From: Anaerolineae bacterium
Lineage (GTDB): Bacteria; Chloroflexota; Anaerolineae; VGOG01
Direction: 5' to 3'
Assembly: GCA_049589355.1 (NCBI GenBank)
Contig: JBAWAP010000434.1
Span: 177-64,176 of the forward strand
Length of the DNA: 64,000 nt
Positions 1 through 60,816 of the stretch are shown one piece after another. Below the pieces are notes generated by a model. That model was not told where the DNA came from and did no database searches. It saw only the letters and a list, made by a program, of their open reading frames with translations. A program made the position numbers and the translations under genes. How positions within the stretch are numbered: position 1 is the stretch's first letter; every line of letters begins with the position of its first letter.

Positions 1-3000
1 ACCAATGCTCGTCGGATTGGCCACAACGTTAACGTAGACCGGCGGCCCAATAGTGAAGACCACATCAACCCACCCGATTGCTGAGCCAGAAATGGCAGTG
101 ACCCTAGCTGTACCAATGTCGTCTTCGGAGATCAGTGTGGTCCCAGCCACCCCCTCGATCGTGGTATTGGAGGAAGGCGACAAGGTTCCGAGGGTGGTGG
201 TGAAGACTACATTGGTTCCATTCGTTACATTGTTGCCATACTGATCTTTCACAGTAGCGGTGATGCTCGAAGTAGCTCCGCCAATAGGGATGTGGGTTGG
301 ATTAGCTGTAACATTTATGCTAGAGGGCGGCCCTGCAGCGATTTTAACAATCGCCGTATCGGACTTGGAGTCGGCGGTGGCTGTAATGTGGGCCACACCA
401 GACGTTAGTCCCGAGGTCAGCGTTGCCATAGCCACGCCGCTGACCGTAGTCCGGGTGACTGTGGTGCTGCCAAGGCTGCCAAAGTCAGTGGTGAAGACTA
501 CAGGCGTACCGTTGGCCACCGCGTAGCCGCCGATGTCCGTCACTGTTGCCGTGATCGTGGCTGTATTACCCCCCACTTCAATAGTGGGAGGCCACGACTC
601 CGCAGTAACGGTGTAAGGCGCCCCGACAGTGAAAATCACCTGGGTTTGCCCTACCACCGAATCAGAAGTGGCAGAGACATTTGCCGTGCCAATGATTAAG
701 CCGGAGGTCAAGGTAGCCTTGGCCACCCCGTTGACAGTGGTCTTCACGACGCTGCTCGAACCAACGCTACCCAAATCCGTAGTAAAGGTCACCTCTGTCC
801 CATTGGCCACCATGTTACCATACAGGTCCTTGACCGTGGCGGTGATCGTCGAGGTGAACCAACCGATGGGAATGCTCGTCGGATAAGCCCTTACTGCCAC
901 CGTGTAGGGCGGGCCAGGGTTAAAAGTCACATTGGCCGTGGCATATTTCGAGTCTGCCGTAGCTGTAACCAATGCCGTGCCAGCCACTTGGGAAGTCAGA
1001 TTAGCGGTGGCCACCCCACTGGTGGTCACCTTGGTAACCAATTTGCTTCCCACATCGCCCAGGCTGGTAGTGAAGGTCACAACAGTTCCGTCGGCCACGT
1101 TGTTGTTGTACTGATCCTTCACTGTGGCCGTAAGCGACGAAGAGTTACCAGCGGTGGGGCTCGTAGGATAGGCCACCAAGGTCACCGTATAAGGCGAACC
1201 ATGCTCAAACTTGACTGTGGTTGTAGCAACCTTGGAATCCGACGTGGCCGTGATCGTTGCCATGCCTGGGATTTGGGAGGTCAACGTAGCTGTAGTTACT
1301 CCGTTGGCCGTGGTCTTAGTAACCGTAACGCTGCCCAAGCTCCCCAAACTGGTCTCGAAGGTAACCACCGTGCCATTGGCCACGTTGTTGTTGTACTGAT
1401 CCTTCACCGTGGCCGTGAGCGCCGAGGTGCTCCCGACAATCAGACTCGTCGGATAGGCTATCAACGTCACGGTGTAGGGTACATCGGGCCTGAAAGTGAC
1501 AGTGGTCGTAGCGACTTTGGAATCTGACGCGGCTGTTACCACTGCCGCGCCCGCTGTATTGCCCGAGGTCAACGTGGCTGTAGCCACTCCGCTGGCCGTG
1601 GTCTTGGTGACTGTACCACCATCCAGGCTTCCCAAACTGGTCGCGAGAGTCACCACCGTCCCATCGGTCACATTGTTATTTAACTGATCGGTCACGGTGA
1701 CCGTGAGCGTTGAGGTGAAGCCGCCAACCAGGATGCTCGTCGGATTGGCTGTCAACGTAACTGTATAGGGTAGGCCGGCTTTGAAAGTCACGTTCACAGT
1801 GCCAGAGACAGAGTCGGCGGTGGCGGTAACAGTCGCGGTGCCCGGAACCTGAGAAGTCAAAGTAGCTGTAGCCACACCATTGGTTGTACCCCTGGTAATC
1901 GTGACGCTGCCCAAGCTCCCCAGGCTGGTCTCAAAAGTGACCACCGTGCCATTGGCCACATTGTTATTGTACCGATCCTGCACCGTAGCCGTGAGCATCG
2001 AGGTGCCCCCCACGGTCAGATTAGTCGGATAAGCCACCAGGGTCACTGTGTAGGGTGAGAGAGGCGTGAATTTCACTGTAGTTGTGGCAACCTTGGAATC
2101 AGACGTAGCCGTGACGATAGCTGTACCCGCCGTGGTCTCCGAAGTCAAAACAGCCGTGGCTACTCCACTGATGGTTGTCTTGGTGACTGGGCCGCTCCCC
2201 AACCTGCCCAGGCTGGTGGTGAAGGTTACCAGTGTCCCATTGCTCACAGCGTTGTTGCATTTATCCTTTACCGTCGCCGTAAGGGTGGAGGTATAACCAG
2301 CAATGGGGATGCTTGTCGGATAAGCTTCCAAGGTCACCGTGGAGGGTAAGCCAACGTTGAAGACCACGGTTTCGGTATCGGATATTGAACCTGCTGTAGC
2401 CGTGATAGCCGCTGTCCCAGGCAATTGAGAGGTCAGCGTCGCCGTAGCTATGCCTCCGGTGGTGGTCTTACTAACCGTAGTGCTCCCCAGACTGCCCCAA
2501 CTTGTCGTGAAGCTCACCAGCGTCCCATTAGCCACATTGTTGTTATACTGATCCTTTACTGTAGCCGTAAGCGTCGAACTATCCCCTACTGTTAGAATCA
2601 TCGGATAGGCCGCCAAGGTCAGCGTGTAAGGCAGGCCAGGTTGGAATGTCACCTCAGTCGTACCATACTTCGAATCTGCCGTAGCTGTAACCGATGCCGT
2701 GCCAGCCACTTGGGAAGTCAGTATGGCGGTGACCACTCCACTGGTGGTCGTTTTGGTAACCCAGTTGCTTCCCACGTTGCCCAGGTTGGTAGTGAAGGTC
2801 ACAACAGTTCCATTGACCACGTTGTTGTTGCCCAGATCCTTCACCGTGGCCGTAAGCGACGAGCTATTCTCTACCGTAAGGGTCATCGGATAAGCTACTA
2901 ATGTCACAGTATAGGGCGGACCGACTGTGAAGGTCACAGTGACCGTGCCAGTGGCCGTGTCAACCCCGGAACCGGCTGTGGCCGTGATGGTTGCCGTACC

Positions 3001-6000
3001 TGGGGTGTTCGACGAGGTCAAAACGGCCTTAGCTATCCCGCTAATGGTGGTTTTGGTGATGGTAGTACTGCCGACACTACCTAAGTTTGTAGTAAAGGTC
3101 ACCGCCGTCCCATCAACTACGAAGTGTCCAAACTGATCATTAACTGTAGCGGTGAGATTGGATGTGTATCCACCTACCTGGATACTGGTGGGGTTAGCTA
3201 CCAGTTGCACATCCCAGGCAACGCCTACCATGTCCACGTAAGTGGTTCCTGTCAGAGAATCTACCGTCACCGTGACATTCGCTCTGCGTGATGAGCATCC
3301 CGATCTCAGCGGCGCCGTAGCTATACCATTACAGTTCGTGGTCTTGGTGATGCTGAGCGTCGTAGTGGGGGGAGGTTCGAAGCTGCCGAGATCTGTGGTA
3401 AATGTAACTATCCTGTTGCAGACGGGGTTCTCGCAGGAGTCCTTCACCGTAGCCGTAATGATAGCGGTGGCCAACCCATCAGCCAAGATGGTGGTAGGTG
3501 CGCGGGTGACGGTTAGTAGAGCGGGAGAGCCTGCCGAGACAGTGAGGTTTGAGGTGTCAGTGCCTCGAGGATAAACCCCGGCGACACGCCCCTCGATAAT
3601 CCCGGTTCCCGCCTCGTAGCCATGGAATATCACACTACCAACACCATTGGTGACAACAACAGAGGTAGTGGGTGTAAAAACACCGTATAGCGTGCTGGTA
3701 AAGTTCACCGTCACTGCCGTAGGAACCACAGTTCCCACTACGTTGCTATACTGATCGGTCACTGTGAACTGAAGAGTGCTGGTGACACAGCAGGTGATGG
3801 AGACATCGGTAGGCGTAATGGTCAAGGTGTACGGATCACCGGCCGTAATGGTGATGAGCCCTGTATTTGTAACCGTACTCCCTATAGCCGCAGCCTTAAT
3901 CGTCGCCACCCCCGGCTGCGTCCCAGAGGTCGCCGTGGCCGTGGCCCCGCCGCCTGAGGTAGTCGTACCAGAGCGGAAAGCATCAAGTTCGGTATCACTG
4001 CCTCCTGGTGCAGTCTTTACCGTTACGGTTACTTTCCGGGAGGCAAAACTCAAACCAGTGGTGATTACCCTCTCAATCCAGGCATCAGGCCCTGACATGT
4101 CTATGGTTCTGGTATATGCAGGGTTATTGATAGTAACAGTGACCGCACCTCTGGTGGGATCCTGGTGATAAACGAAGGAGACCGCCGTTCCTGTGAAGTT
4201 CCAAGACGCCCAGGCACCTACAGTATCTGTATGGATGTAAGTAACCCCACCAGCGGTAGCCACCGACCATCCTGGCGCTGTCACTTTGGCCCCATTTTCC
4301 GCTTCCACATACTCGTATGGAACCGAGGCTCTGATCGTAGGAGTGATAGTGAAGCCCACCATGACACCATTGGGCGCAGGATCACCGAAACCGTCATCCA
4401 CATCGGCGGTGAGGGTAGAAGTATATCCGCTAACCTTTATCTTATCGGGATTGGCTGTGACTGTCAGGGTATAAACATGCCGCCCGAAGGTAACACTGGT
4501 TGTGCCCGATACAGGACAGCTAGCACCAGTGACGGTGATATAAGCCGTCTGCGTCGGCACCCCTGCCGGCAACTGCTCCGAAGTAAGCGTCGCCGTGACT
4601 CGGCCACTGATGGTGGTCTTAGTGACCGTCTTGCTACTCAGGTCGCCCAAGCTGGTGGTTAAGGTCACCATCGTGCCATCCTGCACAGGATTGCCGCACT
4701 TATCTTTCACCTCAGCGGTTATAGTCGAGGTGTAGCGGAAGTTAGTCAGTAGAGAGGTGTTCGTATCGGTAACGTAGATCCGTGTCGGGTTGGCATTAAT
4801 CGTCAGGGTATAGCAAGAAGCCGTGGTGACGGTTAGGTTAGACGTGTCAGTAACACTGTATCCGCGGACCGTGCCGGTGATAGTCCCTGTTCCCGAAACC
4901 CAGCCATGGAATATCACACTCCCAGCACCATTTGTGACCACAACGCTGGTAGGCGTAAAGATACCGGATGGCTTGCTGGTGAAATCTACCGTCAGAGTTC
5001 TAGGAACCACCAGCCCTACCTGGTTATTATATCGGTCCGTCACCGTGAACTGGAGGGTGCTGGTGACACAGCAGGTGATGGAGACGTTACTAGGCGTGAT
5101 GGTCAAGGTGTACGGATTGCCAGACGTGAGGGTGATGGGCACTCTATCTGTCACCACCCTGGCGGTTTCACAGCACGGCCTTCCCACACCCGTGGCCTCA
5201 ACTATCACTACCCCTGCCTGCGTCCCCGAAGTCAGCACAGCCGTGGCCTTCCCTCCTGAGGTACTCACACCAGAGCGGAAGGCGTCTACGTAGACGCGCT
5301 TATCCGTGCCCCCGGTCACAGTGTACCCAGCTACCGTCACCGTTATGACGTGTGGTCCGGACTTTAAGGCGTGGGTGATAACATGCTCAACTTGATATTG
5401 TGGCGACGAGGTGTACATGTCAATGGTGATGGGCAAGCCGCTATCAACGGTGACAGTGGCGACACCGGCATCAGACAACTTTGGATACATCAGGGAAACC
5501 GCCGTCCCTGTGAAGTTCCAACTGGCGGTAGCTCCGGCAGTGGTGCTAGAGATGACTTCTCCACCGTGATAGAGGGGATTGGTGCCCGTGCTCCACGAGC
5601 TCGATTTGATCACCTCAGGGTCTTCACCCTCCACCAGCTCGTATGGAAGGGTGATCCAGGCACTGTTCTCATCGGTCACGATGAAGCTAACCATGGTACA
5701 ATTGGGCACATATTCGCCAAACTGATCCCTTACTGTAGCTTCAAGGGTGGAGGTAGAAGTCCTATCTGCCGCAATCTGATTGGGATTGGCTGTGACCGTC
5801 ACGCTGTTAGGAAAACTCGCCGTCATCTTAACCAACTTCGTGCCAGTTATCATGTAGGGAATAGAGGGGTCACCGCTAAGAGCGGTCACCGTAGCGTCTT
5901 CCGATCCGCATGACAAAAGAGTCGAGGTCAGGGTAGCCGTGCCTTGGCCATTCGCATCAGTCGTGGCCCCGCAGCGGAAGGCATCGACCCGAATGCAGGT

Positions 6001-6651
6001 TCCCAATCCAACTGGGGATCGAGTTAGATATTTCACGGTTATAATATGCGACCCAGAACCCAAACCAGCAGTTATCACCCTCTCCGCCGCCACTTTAGTG
6101 CCAGCGTACATGTCCACAGTGATGGCCATACTGCCATCTATCTGGACCTCAGCAACACCGCCATCGGCATCTTTAACATATAACATGGAAATCGCGGTTG
6201 CCATGAAGGTCCAGCTCAAATTGGCGTTCGGGTGCGTTGTGCCACACGTCCTGGCATACTGCCCTCCGCTAGCCCCAGGGTAGCCCTCAATAGTCCAATC
6301 GCCGGGCGACTTATTCACCGAAGCGTCTTCCGCCTCAACGTAGCAATATTGGTCAATCGTGCCCAGGGTAGTGGTGAAAGCGATAAAAGCCCCGGGCACC
6401 CCCAAGCCGTCCGAATCCTTCACCGTACCCGTGATAGTCGAATTGGAGTCGCCATCGGCCCGGATTTCAGTCGGAGAGGCATCCACTTCCACTACATGTG
6501 GGGGGCCAGCAACCAGAGCGCTGCCTCCATCTTGCTCCACATCTTCCATGGCAACCGCAGGCCCCGCACCAGCAAGGACCACCATCACCAGTACCAAGCC
6601 AAGCATGCCAACAACTATACTCAGCACGATCTTCGCCAGTTTTGTTGTCAT
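1..6651 (-). CDS. Giant secreted cell-surface protein with >20 tandem ~95-aa Ig-like (Big/invasin-type) repeats; 5' part only, continues off the window
   Basis: Minus-strand ATG at 6651..6649 preceded by GGGGGAA RBS. N-terminal signal/anchor MTTKLAKIVLSIVVGMLGLVLVMVVLAGAGPAVA. Then ~290-nt periodic repeats of the form ...TATVKDQYNNNVANGTVVTFTTSLGSLGS..., plus three copies of a larger module (WNFTGTAVSL.Y ... ID.Y ... VDAFR.G). No minus-strand stop-bounded ORF is listed in 1-6651, consistent with one open frame running off the edge. Plus-strand ORFs here are V/T/A-rich shadow frames. Confidence 0.75.
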   Translation of the reverse strand, partial: MTTKLAKIVLSIVVGMLGLVLVMVVLAGAGPAVAMEDVEQDGGSALVAGPPHVVEVDASPTEIRADGDSNSTITGTVKDSDGLGVPGAFIAFTTTLGTIDQYCYVEAEDASVNKSPGDWTIEGYPGASGGQYARTCGTTHPNANLSWTFMATAISMLYVKDADGGVAEVQIDGSMAITVDMYAGTKVAAERVITAGLGSGSHIITVKYLTRSPVGLGTCIRVDAFRCGATTDANGQGTATLTSTLLSCGSEDATVTALSGDPSIPYMITGTKLVKMTASFPNSVTVTANPNQIAADRTSTSTLEATVRDQFGEYVPNCTMVSFIVTDENSAWITLPYELVEGEDPEVIKSSSWSTGTNPLYHGGEVISSTTAGATASWNFTGTAVSLMYPKLSDAGVATVTVDSGLPITIDMYTSSPQYQVEHVITHALKSGPHVITVTVAGYTVTGGTDKRVYVDAFRSGVSTSGGKATAVLTSGTQAGVVIVEATGVGRPCCETARVVTDRVPITLTSGNPYTLTITPSNVSITCCVTSTLQFTVTDRYNNQVGLVVPRTLTVDFTSKPSGIFTPTSVVVTNGAGSVIFHGWVSGTGTITGTVRGYSVTDTSNLTVTTASCYTLTINANPTRIYVTDTNTSLLTNFRYTSTITAEVKDKCGNPVQDGTMVTLTTSLGDLSSKTVTKTTISGRVTATLTSEQLPAGVPTQTAYITVTGASCPVSGTTSVTFGRHVYTLTVTANPDKIKVSGYTSTLTADVDDGFGDPAPNGVMVGFTITPTIRASVPYEYVEAENGAKVTAPGWSVATAGGVTYIHTDTVGAWASWNFTGTAVSFVYHQDPTRGAVTVTINNPAYTRTIDMSGPDAWIERVITTGLSFASRKVTVTVKTAPGGSDTELDAFRSGTTTSGGGATATATSGTQPGVATIKAAAIGSTVTNTGLITITAGDPYTLTITPTDVSITCCVTSTLQFTVTDQYSNVVGTVVPTAVTVNFTSTLYGVFTPTTSVVVTNGVGSVIFHGYEAGTGIIEGRVAGVYPRGTDTSNLTVSAGSPALLTVTRAPTTILADGLATAIITATVKDSCENPVCNRIVTFTTDLGSFEPPPTTTLSITKTTNCNGIATAPLRSGCSSRRANVTVTVDSLTGTTYVDMVGVAWDVQLVANPTSIQVGGYTSNLTATVNDQFGHFVVDGTAVTFTTNLGSVGSTTITKTTISGIAKAVLTSSNTPGTATITATAGSGVDTATGTVTVTFTVGPPYTVTLVAYPMTLTVENSSSLTATVKDLGNNNVVNGTVVTFTTNLGNVGSNWVTKTTTSGVVTAILTSQVAGTASVTATADSKYGTTEVTFQPGLPYTLTLAAYPMILTVGDSSTLTATVKDQYNNNVANGTLVSFTTSWGSLGSTTVSKTTTGGIATATLTSQLPGTAAITATAGSISDTETVVFNVGLPSTVTLEAYPTSIPIAGYTSTLTATVKDKCNNAVSNGTLVTFTTSLGRLGSGPVTKTTISGVATAVLTSETTAGTAIVTATSDSKVATTTVKFTPLSPYTVTLVAYPTNLTVGGTSMLTATVQDRYNNNVANGTVVTFETSLGSLGSVTITRGTTNGVATATLTSQVPGTATVTATADSVSGTVNVTFKAGLPYTVTLTANPTSILVGGFTSTLTVTVTDQLNNNVTDGTVVTLATSLGSLDGGTVTKTTASGVATATLTSGNTAGAAVVTAASDSKVATTTVTFRPDVPYTVTLIAYPTSLIVGSTSALTATVKDQYNNNVANGTVVTFETSLGSLGSVTVTKTTANGVTTATLTSQIPGMATITATSDSKVATTTVKFEHGSPYTVTLVAYPTSPTAGNSSSLTATVKDQYNNNVADGTVVTFTTSLGDVGSKLVTKVTTSGVATANLTSQVAGTALVTATADSKYATANVTFNPGPPYTVAVRAYPTSIPIGWFTSTITATVKDLYGNMVANGTEVTFTTDLGSVGSSSVVKTTVNGVAKATLTSGLIIGTANVSATSDSVVGQTQVIFTVGAPYTVTAESWPPTIEVGGNTATITATVTDIGGYAVANGTPVVFTTDFGSLGSTTVTRTTVSGVAMATLTSGLTSGVAHITATADSKSDTAIVKIAAGPPSSINVTANPTHIPIGGATSSITATVKDQYGNNVTNGTNVVFTTTLGTLSPSSNTTIEGVAGTTLISEDDIGTARVTAISGSAIGWVDVVFTIGPPVYVNVVANPTSIG

Positions 6652-6911
6652 CGGAGCATTCCCCCTTTCAGAGTAACTCCCAAGCCAGCCCATTCAAAAC
6701 AAGACGCCAACGCCAGGCGCTCATAAGTGGCGCCAGGGTTGGCGTGCGCTGATAAACTATGGATACGATGTCCGCCCCTAGCTCTTTTATACTTAGGCAG
6801 CTTCCGGCATCACACGTCGGATGACTCGTTTGCATACCAACTCCTTTGCAAAACGTCAACGACTGGCCGAATCGCTCAGAATCCACACCCTCTGAAAGAG
6901 CTAAATAGGAA

Positions 6912-8585
6912 CTATGATTCCTTGAACAGCAAAGGCAGGTAGTTTCTCCAGCACTGCGAGGGATAGATAACGGTTACCGCTATCGTTTGCGGGTTGTTCA
7001 CGTAACTGGTCATTGTACTGGTAGCGGTGATGGGCGCGGTATAAAGGCCGTAACCTGGCAAACTGTCTTTATCTATGGAGACCGTTACTGAAGATGGCGT
7101 GTAGCCCTCACAGGGGCTGATGGAAAGCCAGGAAGCTTTCGCTGTGGCGCTCCACGTGGAACAGCTTGTATTAGGATTGGTGATCTTCCGCGACGGGGGA
7201 TCACAATCATCACAGACGAGGAAGTAAAGGCCATCATCGGGTTCTATTTCAAGATAGTGGGTCGTTGCCATCACAGCGGCTCTGGCATCAATGCGTCCGT
7301 GGCCGAACTTTTCATCCCAGCCGGACTCGCCCAGGTCAACAGCGGTGGACTCGATGATGTTTTCTACCTCGTCGTTAGTCAAAGTAGGGTTAACCGACCA
7401 GATCAGTGCTGCCAATCCCGATACGTGGGGAGCGGCCGAATGAGTGCTAGAGAATTTACAATAGACGTCTCCTAAACAGAGGCCCAAGATATCCCGTCCA
7501 GGTGCGGCGATGTCTACCTTGTCATTGTAAGTTGAGAAATCAGAGTGTCCATCGTCACGGTTAGTGGCAGCAACGGAAACAACGTGATCAAGAGCTGCTG
7601 GATATTCTATGGTCCTAGTGAAACTATCCCCTGCGGCAGCAACAACAAGAGCGCCCTTGGAGTAAGCATAATTCACTGCAGCCTGCAACGGCTGGGGATA
7701 GTCGGAGCTGGTAAGTGTCCAGCTTAGGTTTATGATCTTTGCCCTGTTATTAGCGGCATATTCGATCCCGCCCGCTGTGTGCCAATGGTACGAGCGACCT
7801 TGGTTATCTATAACTTTGATGGGCATGATCTCAGCTCCCCAGGATACTCCTGCTATCCCATTGCTGTTGTTTGTCACGGCCGCAGCGATGCTGCTCACAA
7901 AAGTACCATGCCAGTAGTCGTCCTGGGGTTCGCCGCGCCAATTGACAAAATCCCAGCCATGCACATCGTCTACATAGCCATTCCCATCGTCATCTATCCC
8001 ATTGCCCGGTATCTCGCCCGGGTTCGTCCATATCTTGTCCTTTAGCTCGGGGTGATCAAGATCAACGCCCGAGTCAACAAAAGCAATAATCACTCTATCG
8101 CTGCCAGTGGTGATGTCCCAAGCGGCGGGGGCTTCAATATTCACGAGGTTCCACTGAGAAGGGTAACTTGGATCATTGGGAATGACATCTGGGGCACGGA
8201 GACTGTAATGGGGCTCGACCGCGATAGTATTTGCAACCTGAACAGCGTAATTTGGCTCGGCGTACTCCACCAGAGGGTTGCGCTTTAGCTCCTCTATCTT
8301 CTCTAGCTCCTGGCCCTTGGGCACGGAGAGCAGCATGAGGCCGAGGTTTTCCATCTCGTCCAATACCTCCACATCCTCAGAGAGGAGCAAAGACTGGACA
8401 CTGGCTTGCGGAACGCCCTCTCTGAATTTGACAATGATCTCACCTGCCTCGAACTCCATCGCGCCACAGGCCGGGTCAGTGGTCGTCGGTATAGGCTCTT
8501 CGGCGAAAGAAAAACAGGGGAGAAGGAGGAAAAGGACAACCAGGAGAAAATGCAAAGTGCTTTTAATCATTGATGCGCCCTTCAT
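6912..8585 (-). CDS. Subtilisin-like serine protease (peptidase S8) with signal peptide and propeptide
   Basis: Asp/His/Ser catalytic motifs: DDDGNGYVDDVHGWDF, HGTFVSSIAAA, SSTHSAAPHVSGLAALIWS. Start chosen at MKGASMIKSTLHFLLVVLFLLLPCFSFA (ATG 8585, RBS GGGGGAAG) rather than the ORF-track start at 8663. Confidence 0.88.
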   Translation of the reverse strand: MKGASMIKSTLHFLLVVLFLLLPCFSFAEEPIPTTTDPACGAMEFEAGEIIVKFREGVPQASVQSLLLSEDVEVLDEMENLGLMLLSVPKGQELEKIEELKRNPLVEYAEPNYAVQVANTIAVEPHYSLRAPDVIPNDPSYPSQWNLVNIEAPAAWDITTGSDRVIIAFVDSGVDLDHPELKDKIWTNPGEIPGNGIDDDGNGYVDDVHGWDFVNWRGEPQDDYWHGTFVSSIAAAVTNNSNGIAGVSWGAEIMPIKVIDNQGRSYHWHTAGGIEYAANNRAKIINLSWTLTSSDYPQPLQAAVNYAYSKGALVVAAAGDSFTRTIEYPAALDHVVSVAATNRDDGHSDFSTYNDKVDIAAPGRDILGLCLGDVYCKFSSTHSAAPHVSGLAALIWSVNPTLTNDEVENIIESTAVDLGESGWDEKFGHGRIDARAAVMATTHYLEIEPDDGLYFLVCDDCDPPSRKITNPNTSCSTWSATAKASWLSISPCEGYTPSSVTVSIDKDSLPGYGLYTAPITATSTMTSYVNNPQTIAVTVIYPSQCWRNYLPLLFKES

Positions 8586-8871
8586 CAGTTCTTCCCCCTC
8601 GCGCCAGCTATCTACTAGAAGCTTCTCTACTGGTTCTTTATCCACACATAAATGATACCACAAGATACCATTTGTGTCAACAACCCGTTAGTCGTGTCCC
8701 TTATCCAGTATTCATGTCAAGAAGCCAGTATTTGCGTCCGTTTAAGCTTATATGACCAGATTGTACGAAGGGGAGTAGACTCCCTACTCCCCTCACATAA
8801 GCTTTATCCACCTGAGCTACCACATTCACTACTGGCGATGACAGCTCACCAAGTTACATCATTGAACATCT

Positions 8872-9654
8872 TTAATGTTGGTTCTTGAATACCGAGGGCA
8901 AATAAACTCCATAATTCACCTGCCAATAGGCCACTTGGTCAGCATATCCCCCCTTATATATGAGACTACTGTATACACCAGCAGGGAAGGCCTCCCCCAA
9001 ATGTGGGTGGCGTATAAGGAAATAACCTTCCCCCGATCCCGAATAGTTTTCGCTCCGGTCGATTATGCATCCCGTCTCCAATTCTGTAACCTCCCTGACA
9101 CATACCCCTATCTCGTCTTCCTCCGGGAGATTTTCATAGTCGAACACCGCATAGACAGTTTGGGTGCCGGGAGGGAATTCGGTCATGGGTTGTCCATCGG
9201 GCGAGTCGCTCATATATAGATTCGTGATTTGACCAGGTGTATCTGCGCGCACATGCCACAGCTTGATCTTGCTGGGATACAGGCCAGCGTATATCCCCGT
9301 TCGATAAGTGTCGGGAGGAATCGGGCCGGAGGTATGGGTTACAGTTATGCACTCAGTGGCCGACCCTGTGTACGAATGGCTTGTGTCGTATAAGGTGACA
9401 TCGTCGGTGACGGCGATTCGCCACTCTTCCCCTTGCATATCAGAGTAGTCAAAGACCACGTATACAGTCTGCGTGTCAGTAGGGAATAGGATCATATCGG
9501 GACCATCGCACGAGTCGCTCATGTGAAGGTTCGTAATCGTGCCTTGCTGAGTTGCAAGGGAGCTCGCAACCTTGGCGGCCACCGCTCCTATCAGCACCAC
9601 AGTCAACGCCAGTGCAATAACAGCGGCAACTAACACTACTCTTTTCGGTTTCAT
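8872..9654 (-). CDS. Signal-anchored secreted protein with two copies of an unrecognised ~95-aa domain (ITNLHMSDS.DG...VY.VFDY.DM.GE...YTGSG); paralog of 10246..10767 and 10806..12170
   Basis: Start MKPKRVVLVAAVIALALTVVLIGAV at ATG 9654 with AAAGGAG RBS. Internal duplication of the domain. The N-terminal domain is near-identical to that of 10806..12170. Confidence 0.6.
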   Translation of the reverse strand: MKPKRVVLVAAVIALALTVVLIGAVAAKVASSLATQQGTITNLHMSDSCDGPDMILFPTDTQTVYVVFDYSDMQGEEWRIAVTDDVTLYDTSHSYTGSATECITVTHTSGPIPPDTYRTGIYAGLYPSKIKLWHVRADTPGQITNLYMSDSPDGQPMTEFPPGTQTVYAVFDYENLPEEDEIGVCVREVTELETGCIIDRSENYSGSGEGYFLIRHPHLGEAFPAGVYSSLIYKGGYADQVAYWQVNYGVYLPSVFKNQH

Positions 9655-9689
9655 TCTTGAGACTCCTTTCGGTTTTGTTAGTCGAATTT

Positions 9690-10220
9690 TTACTTCTCGA
9701 CGGGGTATCCCGCCTGCTGCCAACGGGAGAATTCTACCTTCAAGGCCTTAACATCTCTGAACCCCTTGTCCTGGAGAAACTGTGCCGCACGGGCACCGTC
9801 GTCTGGAGGAGGTCAACAGCGGGCGCAATAGGTGATGATCTCTTTATCCCGAGGAAGCTCAGTATAACGATCCTCTATCTCCTCCCAAGGGATTGAGACG
9901 GCCCCTATTATGTGGCCCTCACCGAAATCTTCTTTGCTGCGCACATCAACGATGACTATGTCAGCCCCAGCATCCAGCTTTTCTTTCAACTGCTCCAGGC
10001 TAACACGAGGTACGTCAGATTCGCTATCTGGAACACTAGGTGAGGTAGAAGGCTCCCATAATTGTCGTATCTGGCGAACGACGGTAGAGCCAAACTCTTG
10101 GATGGTAACTGCTCCTGGACCACCGGCTGCAGAATACAGTCTGCCCAGCCATACCCCCACCGCGAAGACGGCCACAATCCCCAGAACGCCCAGTACTCTG
10201 TAAATGATTTTCCTGGTCAT
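9690..10220 (-). CDS. Membrane-anchored rhodanese-domain sulfurtransferase interrupted by an in-frame UGA (9813..9815) at the catalytic-Cys position; candidate selenoprotein or nonsense pseudogene
   Basis: ATG 10220 with GGAGG RBS, N-terminal TM. Rhodanese fold ...GHIIGAVSIPWEEI...KEIITYCARC then UGA. The same frame continues for 40 codons as PPPDDGARAAQFLQDKGFRDVKALKVEFSRWQQAGYPVEK, the conserved rhodanese C-terminus (A.AA.FL...GF.NV..L.GG...W..AG.PV), to TAA 9692..9690. The ORF track stops at the UGA. Confidence 0.6.
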
Positions 10221-10245
10221 TAAGACTCCTCCTTGGGAAGGATAG

Positions 10246-10767
10246 CTAACGAGCAGTCAACACCCGGTAAATGGCCCAGACAACAAGTATGATCAGCACT
10301 ATTGCAGCGGCCGGGACAGCAAAGTCCTTCGCCTGGCTATAGACCTTGGCAACGGGCGACGTTGTTGGCGTGGCAACAGGCCTTGCTACTGGCTCGCCAA
10401 CATCCCATATTATGGTCCTACTTACGTATTCACCATAGTAAAAATTGGTGACATACCGACCATCGGGAAAGACCCCCTCCTTGGGCGAAGTCGCCACGGA
10501 CTCTGTCCCAGATCCGGTGTAGGCTTGGGTCTGCTCGAAGAGAATGCTGCCGAAATTGTCATAGACCCTTACTTTTATCTGTTCCCCAGCCATATCAGCG
10601 TAATCGAAGATAGCATAGACGACGGCTATACCTGAGGGAAACTGGGTCATGGCCTGCCCATCGGGAGCATCGCTCAGATGGATGTTAGCCAGGCTCTGGG
10701 CCATAGCGATACTGACTAACAAGATGGTCAAGGATAAAGCTATAGCGATAGGAACAAGGCGTTTCAT
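10246..10767 (-). CDS. Secreted protein with one copy of the same unrecognised domain plus a C-terminal TM anchor
   Basis: Signal peptide MKRLVPIAIALSLTILLVSIAMA, AGGAG RBS. Domain NIHLSDAPDGQAMTQFPSGIAVVYAIFDYADMAGE...YTGSGTE. C-terminal hydrophobic segment followed by a basic tail. Confidence 0.6.
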   Translation of the reverse strand: MKRLVPIAIALSLTILLVSIAMAQSLANIHLSDAPDGQAMTQFPSGIAVVYAIFDYADMAGEQIKVRVYDNFGSILFEQTQAYTGSGTESVATSPKEGVFPDGRYVTNFYYGEYVSRTIIWDVGEPVARPVATPTTSPVAKVYSQAKDFAVPAAAIVLIILVVWAIYRVLTAR

Positions 10768-10805
10768 TGGTTAACACTCCTTTCACAAGATAATCTTTGG
10801 GAGAA

Positions 10806-12170
10806 TCAAGAAGACCGTCTCTGCCAAAGCAACAAAGCCAAGAGGACCAATACCACTGCTACAAAAACATAACCTGCGATAACCCAAAAAGGTCTTGTAC
10901 CCTCCGTGGTGCCTGAAGTGGCAGTGGGTACGGGGGTAAACATTGGCATCAGTGCGGTTGTCGGTGTTGGCAATACTGTTGCCGGAGTGATAGATGGTGA
11001 CGTCACCGCGGCTGTAGCTGGCATTAGGGTGGTTGTAGGCAGAGCTGTGGCCAAGGTTGGCGTTAGTGATACCTCTGTGGCCGTCGGCAGCGCTGGAGTC
11101 GGTGTCAGTGTCGGCTGTTCCGGTGCCAGTGTTGGTGTAGGCGGCATCGGGGTTGGATATGGCTGCTCCGGTGTAAGTGTCGGCGTCGGAGGCACTGGAG
11201 TTGGCGTCGGCTGCCCCGGCGCTAGTGTTGGCGTAGGTGACGCCGACGTTGGAGTAGGCGTAGGCAGCACCGGATAGGGGTTTGCTGGCCCTGGTGTCGG
11301 TGTAGGAGGCATCGGTGTCGCCGTAGTCGTTGCTGGAATGGATGTAGGGGTGAGAGTCACTGGTGTCGCCGTAGCCGTTGCTGGAATGGGCGTAGGCGTG
11401 GAAGTTGCCTCCTCAGTGGCTGGACTTGCCGAAATAACTGACCAACTTACAATACCGTCAACAGACCCGTCCTTCACGACGAGAGTTCTATACTTGTCTA
11501 CGGGAAAACCAGTCATTAGGTAGTGGGTTATGCTGATGGCCTTCGTCCCTGAGCCAGTAAGAGAAGCCCCCGTGCTGATAACATCCGCATAACCACCATC
11601 TTCTTTCCGAACATCGATCCCTACTACATTTCCTACCATGCCAGCATAATCGAAAATCGCCCAAACGGTCCGAGTCCGAATGCCTTCAATGAACACTGTC
11701 TCTGATGGCCCATCAGGCGCAATGCTCATGCGAAGATTCGTGATTTCGCCTGGCCCACCTGGACGCACGTACCACAATAGAGTCTTGACAGGAAAAAGCC
11801 CAGAATGTATCTGCGTCTGAAAAGCACCGGAAGGAATAGGCCCAGAGGTGTGAGTTATGGTAATGCACTTAGTGCCCGACCCTGTGTACGAATGGGTTTC
11901 GTCATATAAAGCGACACCGCCGGTGTCCCTGACCGCGATTCGCCACTCTTCCCCTTGCATATCAGAGTAATCGAAGACCACGTATACGGTCTCCGTGTCA
12001 ACCGGGAAGAGGATCATATTGGTGCCGTCGCATGAGTCACTCATGTGAAGATTCGTGATCATGCCTTGCTGAGCTGCAAGAGAACTCGCACCCTTCGCCG
12101 CTAGCCCTGCTATCAGCACCACAGTCAACGCCAGTGCTAATCCAACAGTCCGAGAAACCAATCGCCTCAT
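10806..12170 (-). CDS. Membrane-anchored surface protein: two copies of the unrecognised domain, a long Pro/Thr-rich linker and a C-terminal TM anchor
   Basis: Start MRRLVSRTVGLALAL at ATG 12170. Domains at ITNLHMSDSCDG... and ITNLRMSIAPDG.... PT-rich linker of about 150 aa. C-terminal ...FWVIAGYVFVAVVLVLLALLLWQRRSS. Confidence 0.6.
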   Translation of the reverse strand: MRRLVSRTVGLALALTVVLIAGLAAKGASSLAAQQGMITNLHMSDSCDGTNMILFPVDTETVYVVFDYSDMQGEEWRIAVRDTGGVALYDETHSYTGSGTKCITITHTSGPIPSGAFQTQIHSGLFPVKTLLWYVRPGGPGEITNLRMSIAPDGPSETVFIEGIRTRTVWAIFDYAGMVGNVVGIDVRKEDGGYADVISTGASLTGSGTKAISITHYLMTGFPVDKYRTLVVKDGSVDGIVSWSVISASPATEEATSTPTPIPATATATPVTLTPTSIPATTTATPMPPTPTPGPANPYPVLPTPTPTSASPTPTLAPGQPTPTPVPPTPTLTPEQPYPTPMPPTPTLAPEQPTLTPTPALPTATEVSLTPTLATALPTTTLMPATAAVTSPSITPATVLPTPTTALMPMFTPVPTATSGTTEGTRPFWVIAGYVFVAVVLVLLALLLWQRRSS

Positions 12171-12268
12171 AGAATCCCCATTCCCTCCAAACTTGATGCC
12201 AGAACACGATGTCAAGACTCTGGGGCCAAACAACGCATATTATACCATTTTAGCCAAGAGGTGTCAAC

Positions 12269-23791: not shown

Positions 23792-26614
23792 TTATACTCC
23801 CACCGCACACCGCGCCAGAATATCCTGAATGTCCCCCGGCTGCCGCGCCACCGCCCACCGCCAGCGGCCAAATCCGCCGTGGGCGTTGACGGCGTTTACC
23901 CACTCGTCCAGAAACCGCCGTTTGACGCGATCTTGCTCGGTATCCCGCCCCTTGGTCTCCAGAATCAGCATCTCCTCAGTGTTCAGGTGGATCAGGAAAT
24001 CAGGTCGGTATTTGCGCACTACGCCACGATAGATGTACAGCACTTCAAAGCCCAGGTGGTCGTTCTTGACCCACGCCACGACCCCCGGATGGTGGTCCAG
24101 CACATACGCATCGGAGGCCTCCCACGTGCTGTCATACACGCAGAAGTTGATGTGAGACTTTTTCGTCCTCTCGCACGGCTTGCCGGTGTACCAGGTGCTC
24201 ATATCGCCGGTGGCGCGGATGGGATGGTCGCGGTCAAAGACCGGCTCCAGCCGCTCGGTGTTCTCAAAACGCACGGCATCCCAGATGTGCTGCACCACTT
24301 TGGTCATATTGAGCGTGATGATCAGGCGGCGACGCAGCTCGTCCTGGTAGAACAGCGGCGGGTGGATGGCAATCTTGTCGGAGTGGATAAACTGCTCCAC
24401 CAGGCGCACCAACTGCGCCAGCAGCAGCTCCTTGCTCCCCTTCCAGGTGTGCTGCATCTGGTCGTAGACATCGCGCGCCGTCACAAAGACGATGCGCTGG
24501 GTACGGAACTCGCGCGCCAGCCGTTCGAGTTCGATGCGATCCACCTGCGTTACGTCCGGCTTGCCTTCTAGGATGGGGGCCAGTTCGGCCACTTGCGCGG
24601 TGCGGGCGGCGTCCAGTTCCAGCGGCTGGACGCGGTCCCAGTCCAGCGTCAGGGTGGGCCGGTACACGTGGTCAATGCGCACGACGTTGGGCCAGCGAAT
24701 CTCGTACTGCGACTTGGCCGGGTCTGGTTCGATGGGGGTCTTGGGCTGCGGCGGAGGCGGGACAACTCCCTCGCCGCCCTCGTGCGGCAGGAAGGTGAAC
24801 GGCACGCCAAAGATGTTGACGTACTCAGGATCGAACAGGCCGGTCTCCGGGTTGACCTCGTAGGTGGTGCGACGCAGCCCCCGCCCGACCACCTGCTCGC
24901 ACAGGAGTTGGCTGGTAAAGGCGCGCAGGCCCATGATGTGCGTCACTGTCTTGGCATCCCACCCCTCACTGAGCATCCCCACCGAGATGACGCTCTGCAC
25001 CTTCTCACCGGGCTGGCCAACACGCCCAATCGTGTCCACCATCTGGCGCAGCAACTCCGCCTGTTCGCTCTTGGTCAGCTTGCGGACCGGCGCGGCGTCC
25101 TCCTCTTCCGCTTCGTCTTCCGGGTTGAGTTCCACCGGGACAAGCGGCTCTTCCCGCGCCTCGGCCTCGGCCAGCACCTTTGAATCAATGTGCAGGATGC
25201 GCTCCGGGTCACACAGTTCGTCAATGTGCACTTTCTTGTGGTCAAAGGCGTGTTTGACCCGCGCCGCCGTCTCGGTGCGGTTGCCGACGGTGATCATCAC
25301 CGGCGGGGTGGGCAGGCCGGCTCTCTCCCATTCCCGCGCCGTCTCGCGCCAATCGTAGCCCAGCAGGTAATAGCCGTTGAGCACCAGGTCGGGCAGCGGC
25401 TCGTGCGCTCGGGCGCGGCGGTTCAGGTCGTCCTTCACCTCCGGGTCGTTGTAGATGTGGTAGAGGCGCGATTTGTAGGTTTTGGCGTCCGGCACGGCGT
25501 CGTCGCGCACCACCACGCGCGGCGTCTTGACCAGGCCCGACTCGATGGCGTCGTTCAGCCCGAAATCGCTCACAATCCAGCCGAACAGCGCCTCCTCTGT
25601 GGTCTGTTTGCCGGACGGCGAAAACGGCGTGGCGGAGAAGTCGTAGCAGGTCAGAATCCCCCGCGTGCGATGCAGGCGGTCCAGGCCGCCGACCCAGATG
25701 GTGGCTTCCTGGGCGCTGTCCTTCATGTCGCGCGTGCGCAGGTACTTGCCGACGGCTTCCACGTTCACGCGCCAGGCGTGGTGCGCTTCGTCGTTGATGA
25801 CCAATAGATTGCGGGCCTTGGCCATCTCACCCAGTATCTCGCGGGTGTAGGCCTCGTCGCTCTTGGCCCCGCGCTTGTCCACGCTGCGCTTGCGGGCGAT
25901 CTGCTCCTCACTCTCCCAGTTGAGGACGTGCCAGTTGCGCACCAGCACCCGCCCCTGGCGCAGTTTGTCCAACAGCGCCGAGGGCACGATGCGAAACGCC
26001 TCGTAGTAGTTGCCCGGCGCCGACGGTATCAGCACCGCCAGGCGGCTTTTGACCGTCAGCCCAGGCGCGATGACCAGCACGTTTTTGGCAAAGCGGGCGT
26101 CCTGCGGATAAGTGACCTTGTTCAGGATGTGCCAGGCGATGGTCATGGCCATGACGATGGTCTTGCCGGCGCCGGTGGCCATCTTGCAGCAGCGGCGCAG
26201 AAACTCCCCGCCGTCGGAGGGGATGTCAATGCCCACCCGCTCGGCGGCGGGCGCTTCGGTCAGCCAGATCAGCGTCTCCACCGCTTCCAGTTGGCAGAAG
26301 AAAAAACGCCGCGCCTCGTATTCCTCCGGGTCGGTCCAGTGCTCCAGCAGGCGACTGGTGATGCTGCTCACGCCGGGATAGCCCGCCTCGCGCCAGGCCT
26401 TGACGCGCGGGCGAATCTGGTTGACCAGCGGGATTGGCACAAAGATGCCGGGATCGTCGAAGGCTTTGGAACTCTCCGAGGCCACGACGTACCCCGCCGG
26501 GCGGCGGCCTTCTTCCAACGAGAACAGGCGCGTCTCGCGGTCGTAGCGCCAGTGGCGCGTCGGCTCCGCGTAGGGCGTGTTGATGATGAGGCGGTCAATA
26601 GTGGTCTGGGCCAT
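23792..26614 (-). CDS. res: Type III restriction enzyme, Res subunit (SF2 helicase)
   Basis: 940 aa. DEAH box VINDEAHH, ATP-binding MATGAGKT, N-terminus typical of type III Res. Confidence 0.85.
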   Translation of the reverse strand: MAQTTIDRLIINTPYAEPTRHWRYDRETRLFSLEEGRRPAGYVVASESSKAFDDPGIFVPIPLVNQIRPRVKAWREAGYPGVSSITSRLLEHWTDPEEYEARRFFFCQLEAVETLIWLTEAPAAERVGIDIPSDGGEFLRRCCKMATGAGKTIVMAMTIAWHILNKVTYPQDARFAKNVLVIAPGLTVKSRLAVLIPSAPGNYYEAFRIVPSALLDKLRQGRVLVRNWHVLNWESEEQIARKRSVDKRGAKSDEAYTREILGEMAKARNLLVINDEAHHAWRVNVEAVGKYLRTRDMKDSAQEATIWVGGLDRLHRTRGILTCYDFSATPFSPSGKQTTEEALFGWIVSDFGLNDAIESGLVKTPRVVVRDDAVPDAKTYKSRLYHIYNDPEVKDDLNRRARAHEPLPDLVLNGYYLLGYDWRETAREWERAGLPTPPVMITVGNRTETAARVKHAFDHKKVHIDELCDPERILHIDSKVLAEAEAREEPLVPVELNPEDEAEEEDAAPVRKLTKSEQAELLRQMVDTIGRVGQPGEKVQSVISVGMLSEGWDAKTVTHIMGLRAFTSQLLCEQVVGRGLRRTTYEVNPETGLFDPEYVNIFGVPFTFLPHEGGEGVVPPPPQPKTPIEPDPAKSQYEIRWPNVVRIDHVYRPTLTLDWDRVQPLELDAARTAQVAELAPILEGKPDVTQVDRIELERLAREFRTQRIVFVTARDVYDQMQHTWKGSKELLLAQLVRLVEQFIHSDKIAIHPPLFYQDELRRRLIITLNMTKVVQHIWDAVRFENTERLEPVFDRDHPIRATGDMSTWYTGKPCERTKKSHINFCVYDSTWEASDAYVLDHHPGVVAWVKNDHLGFEVLYIYRGVVRKYRPDFLIHLNTEEMLILETKGRDTEQDRVKRRFLDEWVNAVNAHGGFGRWRWAVARQPGDIQDILARCAVGV

Positions 26615-27020
26615 CGGTTCCCTCGCTCTCTACCGCCGCGCTCACCTGCTCTTCTGCCCAGCGGCGCACGTCTGCGACCACACTCGCCGCATCGGATAGC
26701 GAGGTGAGTTCGATCTCCATATCGTCGTAACGGAAGGTGACGGCAAAGGGATTCAAGCGGCGCAGTTGACCCTCCGGGACCGGCAACACGATGCCGCGCT
26801 CGCTCAACAATCGCGCCAGTTTGACCAGGTCGTGTACGCGCTCGAACTCGATCCGGCGCGAGAACAAGACCGCCTTGAGCGATTTTTCCACGGCCTGTTG
26901 GGCGTGGAAACAGATCATCGAAATGTGAACTTCTGGCCTTGCTCTGAGCGCGTCGAAAGCCTGGATGTCGCGGTCTGCCAGACGCAGCGACCGCCAAGCT
27001 TCTTCAATGTGCGGCTTCAT
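26595..27020 (-). CDS. HEPN-domain protein (toxin-like) embedded between mod and res
   Basis: ...ICFHAQQAVEKSLKAVL...RVHDLVKLARLL is HEPN-like. Overlaps the MNT gene by 17 nt and the res start by 20 nt. Confidence 0.7.
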   Translation of the reverse strand: MKPHIEEAWRSLRLADRDIQAFDALRARPEVHISMICFHAQQAVEKSLKAVLFSRRIEFERVHDLVKLARLLSERGIVLPVPEGQLRRLNPFAVTFRYDDMEIELTSLSDAASVVADVRRWAEEQVSAAVESEGTDGPDHY

Positions 27021-27324
27021 ATAAGGCTCTCCCTTCCTTGCGCGCCCAATACAGCACGGTACCCGGCACCTGGCTGCGTCGCCGGTATTCTGCTTCCGAA
27101 TACACCAGCACGTCCACCCCCAAGCCGATATGGCTTACCGCTTCGTGCAGGCGGATCATCTCGGCATACTGGTCGGGTACTTCCGGCTCAATTACCATGA
27201 GGTCCAGGTCCGAACCGGCGTCGGCGTCGCCGCGCCCATAGGAACCGAACAGGATCACGCGGCTGGGTTGCGCCGCCGCGACGATGCGCTTCACGACTTC
27301 TTGCAGGGTTTGCTCGTCAATCAT
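27004..27324 (-). CDS. Minimal nucleotidyltransferase (MNT), partner of the HEPN protein
   Basis: GSYGRGDADAGSDLDLMV is the NTase motif GS..RG......SD.DL. Start overlaps the mod stop. Confidence 0.75.
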   Translation of the reverse strand: MIDEQTLQEVVKRIVAAAQPSRVILFGSYGRGDADAGSDLDLMVIEPEVPDQYAEMIRLHEAVSHIGLGVDVLVYSEAEYRRRSQVPGTVLYWARKEGRALYEAAH

Positions 27325-29915: not shown

Positions 29916-30046
29916 GTTGTGACTCCCCTTTTGTCGGGATGCTAAACGCTGGCGCGAGGGCGGCTGACGGCGGAGTTCAGCGGCGCGGGATGGGACGAGT
30001 AAACATGCCCACACTGAACCCTTGACCGTCGAGATCCCCGATCAGG

Positions 30047-30327
30047 TCTTCATCGTTGCTTGATATTATACAGCAGAAGCCCTTGCAGGTCAACCACCAG
30101 CACAATGCCAGCCCGAAAAGCAAAAGCGGGAGACGCTTACTACCTCCCGCTTTGCTTTTAGACAAGTATGCAGTTACCGTTCGGCTGATGGTTCGTCAGG
30201 CATGTCCTGAGCCTCGCTCCATAGCCACCTGCTTGGGGCATCGCCGCTTTCGGCTAGCAGTTTATCCCCCACGCTTTGGGCGAACGAATCGCAGCGCGTG
30301 GTTTTGAGCGAACGGATCGCAGAAACG
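30047..30327 (-). repeat. Terminator-promoter repeat, copy 4 (long form; the extension carries a 45-nt insertion and a short duplication relative to copy 3)
   Basis: Minus strand: hairpin (AAAAGCAAAGCGGGAGG-TAGTAAGCG-TCTCCCGCTTTTGCTTTTC), then TTGACC (30093..30088), N17, TATAAT (30070..30065). Sits 150 nt upstream of the mod ATG. Confidence 0.8.
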
Positions 30328-30345
30328 CTGGTTACGCCAGTGCCG

Positions 30346-60715: not shown

Positions 60716-60816
60716 CCCTACCTGGGAGCGCGCCTGGCCTACATCTGGGAGGACCCCAATCTGAAGTATATCTAGCCCGCCGCTCGGCCCACGTTTACTG
60801 AAAGGAATGAAGAAAC

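Follow-up and report, generated by a model that had tools for sequence, protein, structure and literature searches.

Lists of prokaryotic selenoproteins have included rhodanese-related sulfurtransferases since 2005 (PMC1088965). A UxU form was described in 2007 (PMC1976440), a CxU rhodanese selenoprotein has been catalogued (PMC9312934), and a 2026 review describes five forms with the motifs UxxS, UxxG, CxU (NF041203), UxxG, and UxxxxU (TsoB) (PMC13188914). The rule followed in this field is that the same domain with a different selenocysteine (Sec) motif makes a different subfamily (PMC9312934). Chloroflexi have been recorded with a few selenoproteins (PMC1794560). Here we describe a membrane-anchored rhodanese gene on the minus strand of a 64,000-nucleotide stretch of DNA (contig JBAWAP010000434.1; the whole stretch is called the window below) from an Anaerolineae bacterium. 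The gene has an in-frame UGA, at which the deposited product ends, and from comparison with its relatives this UGA is very probably a genuine, conserved Sec codon that is served by a Sec insertion sequence (SECIS) hairpin in a misannotated gene.

The split rhodanese gene and its orthologues

Translation from the ATG at 10220-10218 gives 135 codons with the last residues EIITYCARC, which are followed by UGA at 9815-9813 and then, in the same frame, by 40 more codons (PPPDDGARAAQFLQDKGFRDVKALKVEFSRWQQAGYPVEK) up to a TAA at 9692-9690. The GenBank product, MGA9351893.1, comprises only the first 135 codons and is named 'rhodanese-like domain-containing protein'. The in-frame UGA, the 40-codon extension and a hairpin behind the UGA had been pointed out in a preliminary description of this DNA, and on the minus strand all of their coordinates proved exact, as did the count that puts the UGA 7 residues upstream of A143 in ARAAQFL. 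The features of the gene are as follows.

9690..10220, minus strand: whole recoded gene, predicted to encode a 175-residue rhodanese selenoprotein (ATG 10220, Sec-UGA 9815-9813, TAA 9692-9690)
10143..10196, minus strand: predicted N-terminal hydrophobic signal-anchor, residues ~9-26 (from the sequence and invariant columns)
9714..9998, minus strand: rhodanese domain, residues 75-169, split by the UGA (from PF00581 and the fold of a homologue)
9804..9827, minus strand: predicted extended active-site loop Cys132-Ala-Arg-Cys135-Sec136-Pro-Pro-Pro (from alignments and the model of a relative)
9813..9815, minus strand: in-frame UGA, residue 136, very probably read as selenocysteine (from orthologous TGA and Cys in homologues)
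9782..9796, minus strand: SECIS-like hairpin, 5-bp stem GUGCC/GGCAC and 5-nt loop CGUGC, 16 nt past the A of the UGA
9693..9812, minus strand: post-UGA tail of 40 codons, corresponding to the C-terminal helix and strands of the rhodanese fold (from PF00581 and a dN/dS of 0.27)
9652..9654, minus strand: start ATG of the next operon gene (MKPKRVV..., read from the sequence)

An open extension of 40 codons is by itself not unusual, the chance of one being about 0.15 ((61/64)^40 with uniform codon use). What takes this extension beyond chance is that the Pfam rhodanese profile spans the UGA, that the TGA and the tail are kept in orthologues, and that the hairpin is kept at synonymous sites. When Cys was put in at the UGA, PF00581 aligned across it over residues 75-169 (profile positions 2-101 of 102), and the score of 55.3 bits over the full domain is above the gathering cutoff of 22.2; the rhodanese domain is therefore split by the stop. 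The next gene starts with an ATG (9654) that lies 35 nt past the TAA and has a GGAG about 8 nt upstream of it, whereas without the tail the gap between the two genes is 158 nt, which is unusually long for a tightly packed operon.

About 93 clusters with 65-100% identity, each called at about 135 amino acids, came out of a search of 5.8 billion proteins, and in about 89 of the 93 the C-x-x-C is the C-terminus (TYCGRC in 40, TYCARC in 35, and other endings in fewer). Orthologous DNA was obtained from eight Anaerolineae/Chloroflexota metagenome-assembled genomes (L001-L008) and nine metagenome contigs (L033-L039, L041, L042), and the orthologue set with the window included amounts to 17 distinct DNA sequences. 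All 17 have TGA at the Sec codon, none has TGC or TGT there, and in all of them the TGA is followed by a conserved tail of 39-40 codons with the consensus PPPDDsARAAQFLlDKGFsDVKAm.vEF.RWqeAGYPVEK; most of them also have TGA as the terminal stop, the window and L035 having TAA instead. Over the last 33 tail codons, pairwise Nei-Gojobori estimates from 136 sequence pairs gave 0.165 nonsynonymous (dN) and 0.611 synonymous (dS) substitutions per site, that is, a dN/dS of 0.27. The tail is under purifying selection and therefore it is translated in this frame. The alignment of orthologues that the preliminary description had asked for thus gave TGA in every member with the downstream region kept, and Cys at this column was found only in sister families.

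A few members of the wider family have altered genes. In the lineage of the protein clusters P0061, P0062, P0069 and P0079, the loci L117 (658-760) and L118 (715-820) carry an 8-nt deletion by which the TYCG codons are lost and the frame is shifted, the product then being '...ITPLLTPSG*'; in L118 an extra +2 nt restores the frame past a new TGA that is only 7 nt ahead of the hairpin. The 'ITPLLTPSG' variants were considered as Sec-only forms without the Cys residues and this was rejected because of the deletion and frameshift in the DNA; L117 and L118 resemble selenoprotein genes in decay. In P0095 (112 amino acids) and P0262 (51 amino acids) in-frame internal deletions fuse the N-terminal anchor straight to the post-UGA tail, and they have arisen either by natural deletion or as chimeras in assembly.

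Sec/Cys pairing, the hairpin and the active-site loop

Two related groups of rhodaneses have TGA in the alignment column of the window's UGA. In one, a DedA membrane domain is followed by a C-terminal rhodanese with the sequence ...LYC-T-TGA-PNEATSARVALLL, and TGA is present in all of about 50 distinct DNA sequences; these DedA-fused rhodaneses and their Cys forms came from soil and sediment metagenomes and from Nitrospirota. The other, referred to as the third group, has a K/R-rich N-terminus, a transmembrane helix and a rhodanese domain with ...LYCT-TGA-[GS]QE.QSAR, and adjoins rpoD. Cys forms of the DedA-type group, with LYC[STA]-C-P[NS]E, were found in five DNA sequences and 107 protein clusters. 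MAFFT set the window's ITYC-A-[RC]-U-PPPDDG-ARAAQFL against IVLYC-T-[--]-C-PNEVSS-ARTAFLL, so that the UGA column falls on the second of the two Cys in a C-x-C-P motif that hardly varies, and just ahead of it two residues (R-C) are inserted in the window family. A word-indexed search with the loop plus tail found no Cys form of the window's own subfamily. The tail was also run exhaustively by HMMER through 1.84 billion representatives and likewise gave none, the matches being only multi-rhodanese proteins, deletion variants and P0257. The last is a lipoprotein rhodanese with a lipobox, 60% tail identity and a single Cys in the loop YTSCAWEGDNNG, and is a remote Cys-only homologue.

Both related groups appear to be affected by the same truncation. 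The DedA (VTT)-rhodanese family (L044-L112, for example L077 at ~2100-3330) is large, is found in soil and sediment and has a strong SECIS hairpin, and its gene models are apparently cut at the UGA, since clusters of 127-144 amino acids end in ...LYCT; abundant CxCPNE Cys forms occur in Nitrospirota and other groups. The third group is made up of L119-L122, with the gene at 10001 (or at 2115 and 6301) beside rpoD. Its genes are likewise truncated at the UGA by gene callers, and in L121 a 35-amino-acid open reading frame (ORF) was called within the tail.

The hairpin of the window gene, GUGCC-CGUGC-GGCAC at 9796-9782, has a folding energy of -7.8 kcal/mol. The hallmark of a bacterial SECIS element is a small apical loop with a G, directly downstream of the UGA (PMC1088965), and the window has just such a stem-loop, with a small G-containing loop just past its UGA. 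When 66 distinct Sec-form sequences were aligned from UGA-6 to UGA+48, the register and the offset of the hairpin were identical in all 66, which bears out the preliminary description's proposal of a SECIS-like element, and 93.4% of the cells are paired. At pair 2, 45 sequences have C-G and 16 have U-A, whereas shuffles give 4.8 +/- 1.6 double changes; pair 3 is G-C throughout, and pairs 4 and 5 are C-G with a U-G wobble in 5 sequences and 1 sequence, respectively. The C-G/U-A switch is seen again inside the third group, where L119 has GCGCC/GGCGC and L121 has GUGCC/GGCAC. The apical loop is CGKGY in 65 of the 66, the exception being L043 with GGUGC. All Sec forms have U or G in the third position of the conserved Arg codon, and four of the five Cys forms have C or A (CGC in three and AGA in one, with CGT in L099). 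Energies of -3 to -8 kcal/mol were obtained for the window family and a mean of -10.5 kcal/mol for the DedA family, while in Cys forms the hairpin is weak or absent, what folds there being in other registers at -3.6 to -5.3 kcal/mol. An extension of the lower stem by GAC/GUU was also considered and was rejected because it is broken in 7 of the 17 orthologues, which have CAA there; the claim is limited to the 5-bp apical hairpin.

As to the place of Sec in the active site, the preliminary description had put the UGA exactly at the catalytic Cys position and this could not be upheld. A phmmer comparison with rhodaneses of the Protein Data Bank (PDB) lined up TYC with the canonical ..YC and opened a four-residue insertion in the loop, and both HMMER (with the PDB rhodaneses) and MAFFT put Cys132 on the canonical catalytic Cys. 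The AlphaFold2 model of P0132, a Cys-form relative, was made from a 50-sequence alignment and has a predicted local distance difference test score (pLDDT) of 90.2; it has a strand at 60-64 (DIVLY), a loop C65-A-C67-P-N-E70 and a helix at 71-82, and its fold matches single-domain rhodaneses with a template-modelling score (TM-score) of ~0.8. In this model the first Cys of CxC comes right after the central strand and starts the six-residue loop, which, from the active-site loop of GlpE, we take to be the canonical catalytic position, and the Cys that aligns with Sec is at loop position +2. By homology, an extrapolation from this relative, the window protein would have an eight-residue loop C-A-R-C-U-P-P-P with Cys132 first after the central strand, Sec136 at +4 and a helix that begins near D140. 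Sec136 is four residues past Cys132 in a loop that exceeds that of the CxU relatives by two residues, and the alignments indicate that it is a second chalcogen residue of the loop and not a substitute for the canonical Cys132. The adjacent Cys-Sec pair that had been anticipated is present as Cys135-Sec136.

Alternative readings of the UGA and the selenium context

The reading of the UGA as Sec has in its favor that the codon is conserved in orthologues, that the frame downstream is conserved as coding sequence and that homologues have Cys aligned with it, and together with the conserved hairpin these findings substantiate the selenoprotein that the preliminary description had proposed. The other possibility raised there was a fresh nonsense mutation, that is, a Cys codon TGY turned into TGA in a pseudogene, or a sequencing error. 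The GenBank product does stop at the UGA, and decayed copies do exist in some lineages, namely the frameshifted L117/L118 and the internally deleted P0095/P0262. A fresh mutation or an error does not account for TGA in 17 independent and diverged DNA sequences, for about 89 clusters cut at the same residue, for a tail under selection and for the absence of TGC or TGT from every orthologue, and the probability that we leave to this explanation is negligible. It could also be argued that the UGA is a real terminator of an anchored 135-residue protein and that the stretch downstream is a regulatory RNA or encodes a separate small peptide, since gene callers yield the 135-residue model everywhere and the hairpin could in principle be an attenuator or a stabiliser. 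Such a product, however, would be without the C-terminal helix and strands of the domain, for which the Pfam alignment needs the sequence up to residue 169. The tail is kept in frame with a dN/dS of 0.27 and matches the rhodanese C-terminus, it has neither an ATG/GTG start nor a ribosome-binding site of its own, and the Cys homologues read through the same column, so that we give very little credence to termination.

Readthrough without selenium would leave Cys or Trp in the mature protein, and could come about by near-cognate Trp or Cys insertion, by Cys-tRNASec delivered by SelB, or by a reassigned code. Termination is leaky at a UGA with C as the next base, and C is the next base in at least 90% of the sequences. 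Against a reassigned code, TGA is the normal stop of 9 of the 22 window genes checked (19 of the 22 have Pfam or NCBIfam matches), and these genes stop where a full-length product would end; chorismate synthase and EPSP synthase, for example, end in TGA and their Pfam alignments extend to the profile end. Since TGA ends ordinary window genes, global reassignment of UGA is excluded. A scan of the window for other TGA-bridged ORFs gave 51 candidates, none of them compelling. A bacterial SECIS is recognized by a conserved hairpin at a fixed distance with a small, G-containing apical loop (PMC1088965), the hairpin is lost in Cys forms, and keeping TGA over TGY across such divergence is sensible only if a residue other than Cys is wanted. 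We therefore regard selenium-free readthrough as very unlikely.

Several points weigh against the Sec reading all the same. The hairpin is short, with 5 bp and -7.8 kcal/mol, and the minimum free energy of the 86-nt region is no better than that of shuffled sequences (z = +0.47). Covariation is limited to one pair and probably to two evolutionary events, and part of the nucleotide conservation is accounted for by the conserved S-A-R-A-A peptide. In the databases the window subfamily has no Cys form, so that the Sec/Cys pairing comes from sister families with ~35-45% identity, and the geometry of the 8-residue loop is extrapolated from P0132. Finally, neither the 64-kb window nor roughly 10 kb on either side of 17 related loci yielded selA, selB, selD or tRNA-Sec: tRNA-Sec, transfer-messenger RNA and Rfam scans of the window gave nothing, Pfam and NCBIfam scans of ~30 large ORFs in it gave no selA, selB or selD, and tRNA scans of the 17 orthologous loci gave only one tRNA-Pro.

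The two selenium-linked genes that the preliminary description had named in the window, ssnA and ygfK, are indeed there. SsnA (59128-60468, plus strand) scored 575 bits with NF005540 against a cutoff of 444 and 545 with TIGR03314 against 455, and YgfK (60811-63999, plus strand), which runs off the window end and is for that reason missing from the ORF list, scored 1035 bits with TIGR03315 against 835. They lie side by side and both are markers of the neighbourhood of selenium-dependent molybdenum hydroxylases. Selenium utilisation of the SsnA/YgfK type is a trait other than Sec decoding and is also SelD-dependent. The two genes make selenium metabolism plausible, and Sec decoding is not shown by them. 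Two tandem paralogous TRZ/ATZ-type amidohydrolases at 50945-52276 and 52342-53670 (minus strand) are distinct from the true SsnA at 59128 and are just under every equivalog cutoff (the best scores are 512 and 506 bits against 540). Elsewhere in the window, at 23792-31380 on the minus strand, there is a defence-like island with a ResIII helicase (940 amino acids), an N6/N4 DNA methylase (897 amino acids) and a TIR_2-domain protein (344 amino acids).

If the UGA is read as Sec, the likely course of events, going by the established bacterial mechanism, is that SelB-GTP-Sec-tRNASec would bind the hairpin at 9796-9782 (loop CGUGC) as the ribosome reaches the UGA, and Sec delivery would compete with release factor 2. 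Translation of the 40 further codons would then add the helix and strands by which the rhodanese fold is closed, and failure of recoding would leave a 135-residue fragment with an incomplete domain. The enlarged loop of the complete protein would hold three chalcogen residues, the canonical Cys132, Cys135 and the adjoining Sec136. Its chemistry may be transfer of sulfane sulfur (persulfide or polysulfide) or thiol/selenol redox, in which Sec would act as nucleophile and resolution would proceed through a selenylsulfide with Cys135 or Cys132. SelB dependence, topology and chemistry are all inferred here.

Relation to known forms, operon and cellular location

The best NCBIfam match of the window protein is NF041203, rhodanese_LYCAU, a 'rhodanese-related (seleno)protein', with E = 2.6e-23 and an alignment that covers profile positions 16-125 of 126. 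The score, obtained with Cys in the place of Sec, was 82 bits, under the equivalog cutoff of 115, and among the relatives the third-group sequence L121 came closest with 109, followed by L077 with 89 and L119 with 81 bits. Like the CxU form, which is form 3 of the review and form 2 of COG0607 (NF041203; PMC13188914, PMC9312934), the window protein has a single rhodanese domain and a loop Sec after the retained Cys of YC, and the CxU-type relatives found in this study have the same UGA and 16-nt hairpin spacing. It differs in that its motif is not C-x-U but C-A-R-C-U, in which the Sec column is homologous and a 2-residue insertion adds a Cys beside Sec, and in that it has an N-terminal signal-anchor followed by an invariant WLGRLYSAAGGPG and no Cys form was found in the searches described above. 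The DedA-fused LYC-T-U-PNEATSAR proteins and their Cys forms share with it the homologous Sec/Cys column, the spacing from Sec to SAR-xA-xL and the hairpin register. Unlike the window protein, they carry the rhodanese C-terminal to the DedA domain after a K/R-rich stretch, so that it is probably cytoplasmic, they have the CxU motif and abundant Cys forms, and they are only ~35-45% identical to it.

Forms 1, 2 and 4 (UxxS/UxxG), known from the Sargasso Sea and Olavius symbiont selenoproteomes, also have a rhodanese domain with an active-site Sec and a SECIS past the UGA (PMC1088965, PMC1976440, PMC13188914), but no Cys is listed before their Sec, and it is by the listed motifs that they are set apart (PMC13188914); the window protein has P-P-P after Sec and C-x-x-C ahead of it. 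The TsoB rhodanese/DsbD fusion (NF045694; UxxxxU) does not fit either, the score being 25.8 bits against a cutoff of 805. With GlpE and PspE (PDB 1GMX, 2JTQ, 3TP9, 3ILM) the fold is shared, as the TM-score of the Cys-form relative indicates, and so is YC at the canonical position; their loop, however, has six residues and one Cys, whereas that of the window protein is predicted to have eight with Cys, Cys and Sec and has no Arg of the CX5R type. The C-terminus of mammalian thioredoxin reductase, GCUG, is a vicinal Cys-Sec redox centre. The window protein shares with it an adjacent Cys-Sec pair that could form a selenylsulfide, and since fold and context are unrelated this is an analogy only. 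From these comparisons the window gene is a homologue of the CxU form that shares its Sec column and its SECIS-like hairpin and has an unlisted C-x-x-C-U motif and an anchor, and it very probably encodes a selenoprotein of a kind already known. Its Sec motif on the same domain is a different one and therefore, by the rule of PMC9312934, it would be placed in a separate subfamily.

The N-terminus has R3, K4 and R8, then a hydrophobic stretch of 18 residues and then the invariant motif. Because of the positive-inside rule and the secreted or anchored neighbours, we infer a signal anchor with N-in/C-out topology, so that the rhodanese domain would be located outside the cytoplasm. In other contigs the gene order is a 450-amino-acid protein of unknown function, a 175-amino-acid protein of unknown function, the rhodanese, a 382-amino-acid protein of unknown function, an S8 peptidase and a giant Big_1/invasin-like protein, and the same syntenic genes occupy about 1 to 12233 of the window on the minus strand. 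The three unknown proteins bear signal peptides or anchors and share among them five copies of a repeat.

10393-10695, 9244-9543, 8911-9234, 11760-12065 and 11430-11750, minus strand: ~100-amino-acid repeat, five copies, in the three proteins flanking the rhodanese gene

The invariant positions of this repeat are N..S...DG..F..V..FDY..V..GS..P..W.V, and it gave no Pfam or NCBIfam match. Its AlphaFold2 model (pLDDT 93) is a beta-sandwich of immunoglobulin-like (Ig-like) or fibronectin type III-like kind with generic matches only (best TM-score ~0.65), and going by this model the fold is uninformative on function. The synteny of the repeat proteins with the rhodanese and the S8 peptidase is kept in L114-L116. 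At the far end of this gene row an open frame of at least 2231 codons takes up 1-6693 (minus strand) and continues beyond the window start. Its syntenic counterpart in L114 contains Big_1/Invasin_D3 repeats, and the frame probably encodes a giant surface adhesin-like protein. The N-terminal anchor, the operon proteins with anchors or signal peptides, the S8 peptidase and the lipoprotein homologue P0257 together point to an extracytoplasmic location of the window rhodanese.

It is possible, rather than probable, that the window gene stands for an uncatalogued sixth form of rhodanese selenoprotein, one confined to Anaerolineae/Chloroflexota and always with Sec, which would be anchored by its N-terminus with the catalytic domain and its 8-residue Cys-x-x-Cys-Sec loop outside the cytoplasm, and which would belong to a conserved operon with Ig-like surface proteins and an S8 peptidase. 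The gene does not change what is known of Sec insertion or of the nature of rhodanese selenoproteins. What it does bear on is annotation: about 90 clusters are deposited as truncated 'rhodanese-like' proteins of 135 residues (for example MGA9351893.1 and MBC8265099.1) and are due for re-annotation as selenoproteins, and the same holds for the large DedA-rhodanese family and the CxU group with a transmembrane anchor. The gene would place selenocysteine decoding in this Anaerolineae lineage and add C-x-x-C-U to the forms of rhodanese selenoproteins. If the outward topology is true, the protein would be an extracytoplasmic, membrane-anchored selenoprotein, and the sixth form, if true, would be an extracytoplasmic selenoenzyme with a chemistry unlike that of the cytoplasmic sulfurtransferases, for example the handling of polysulfide or persulfide or thiol redox at the cell surface.

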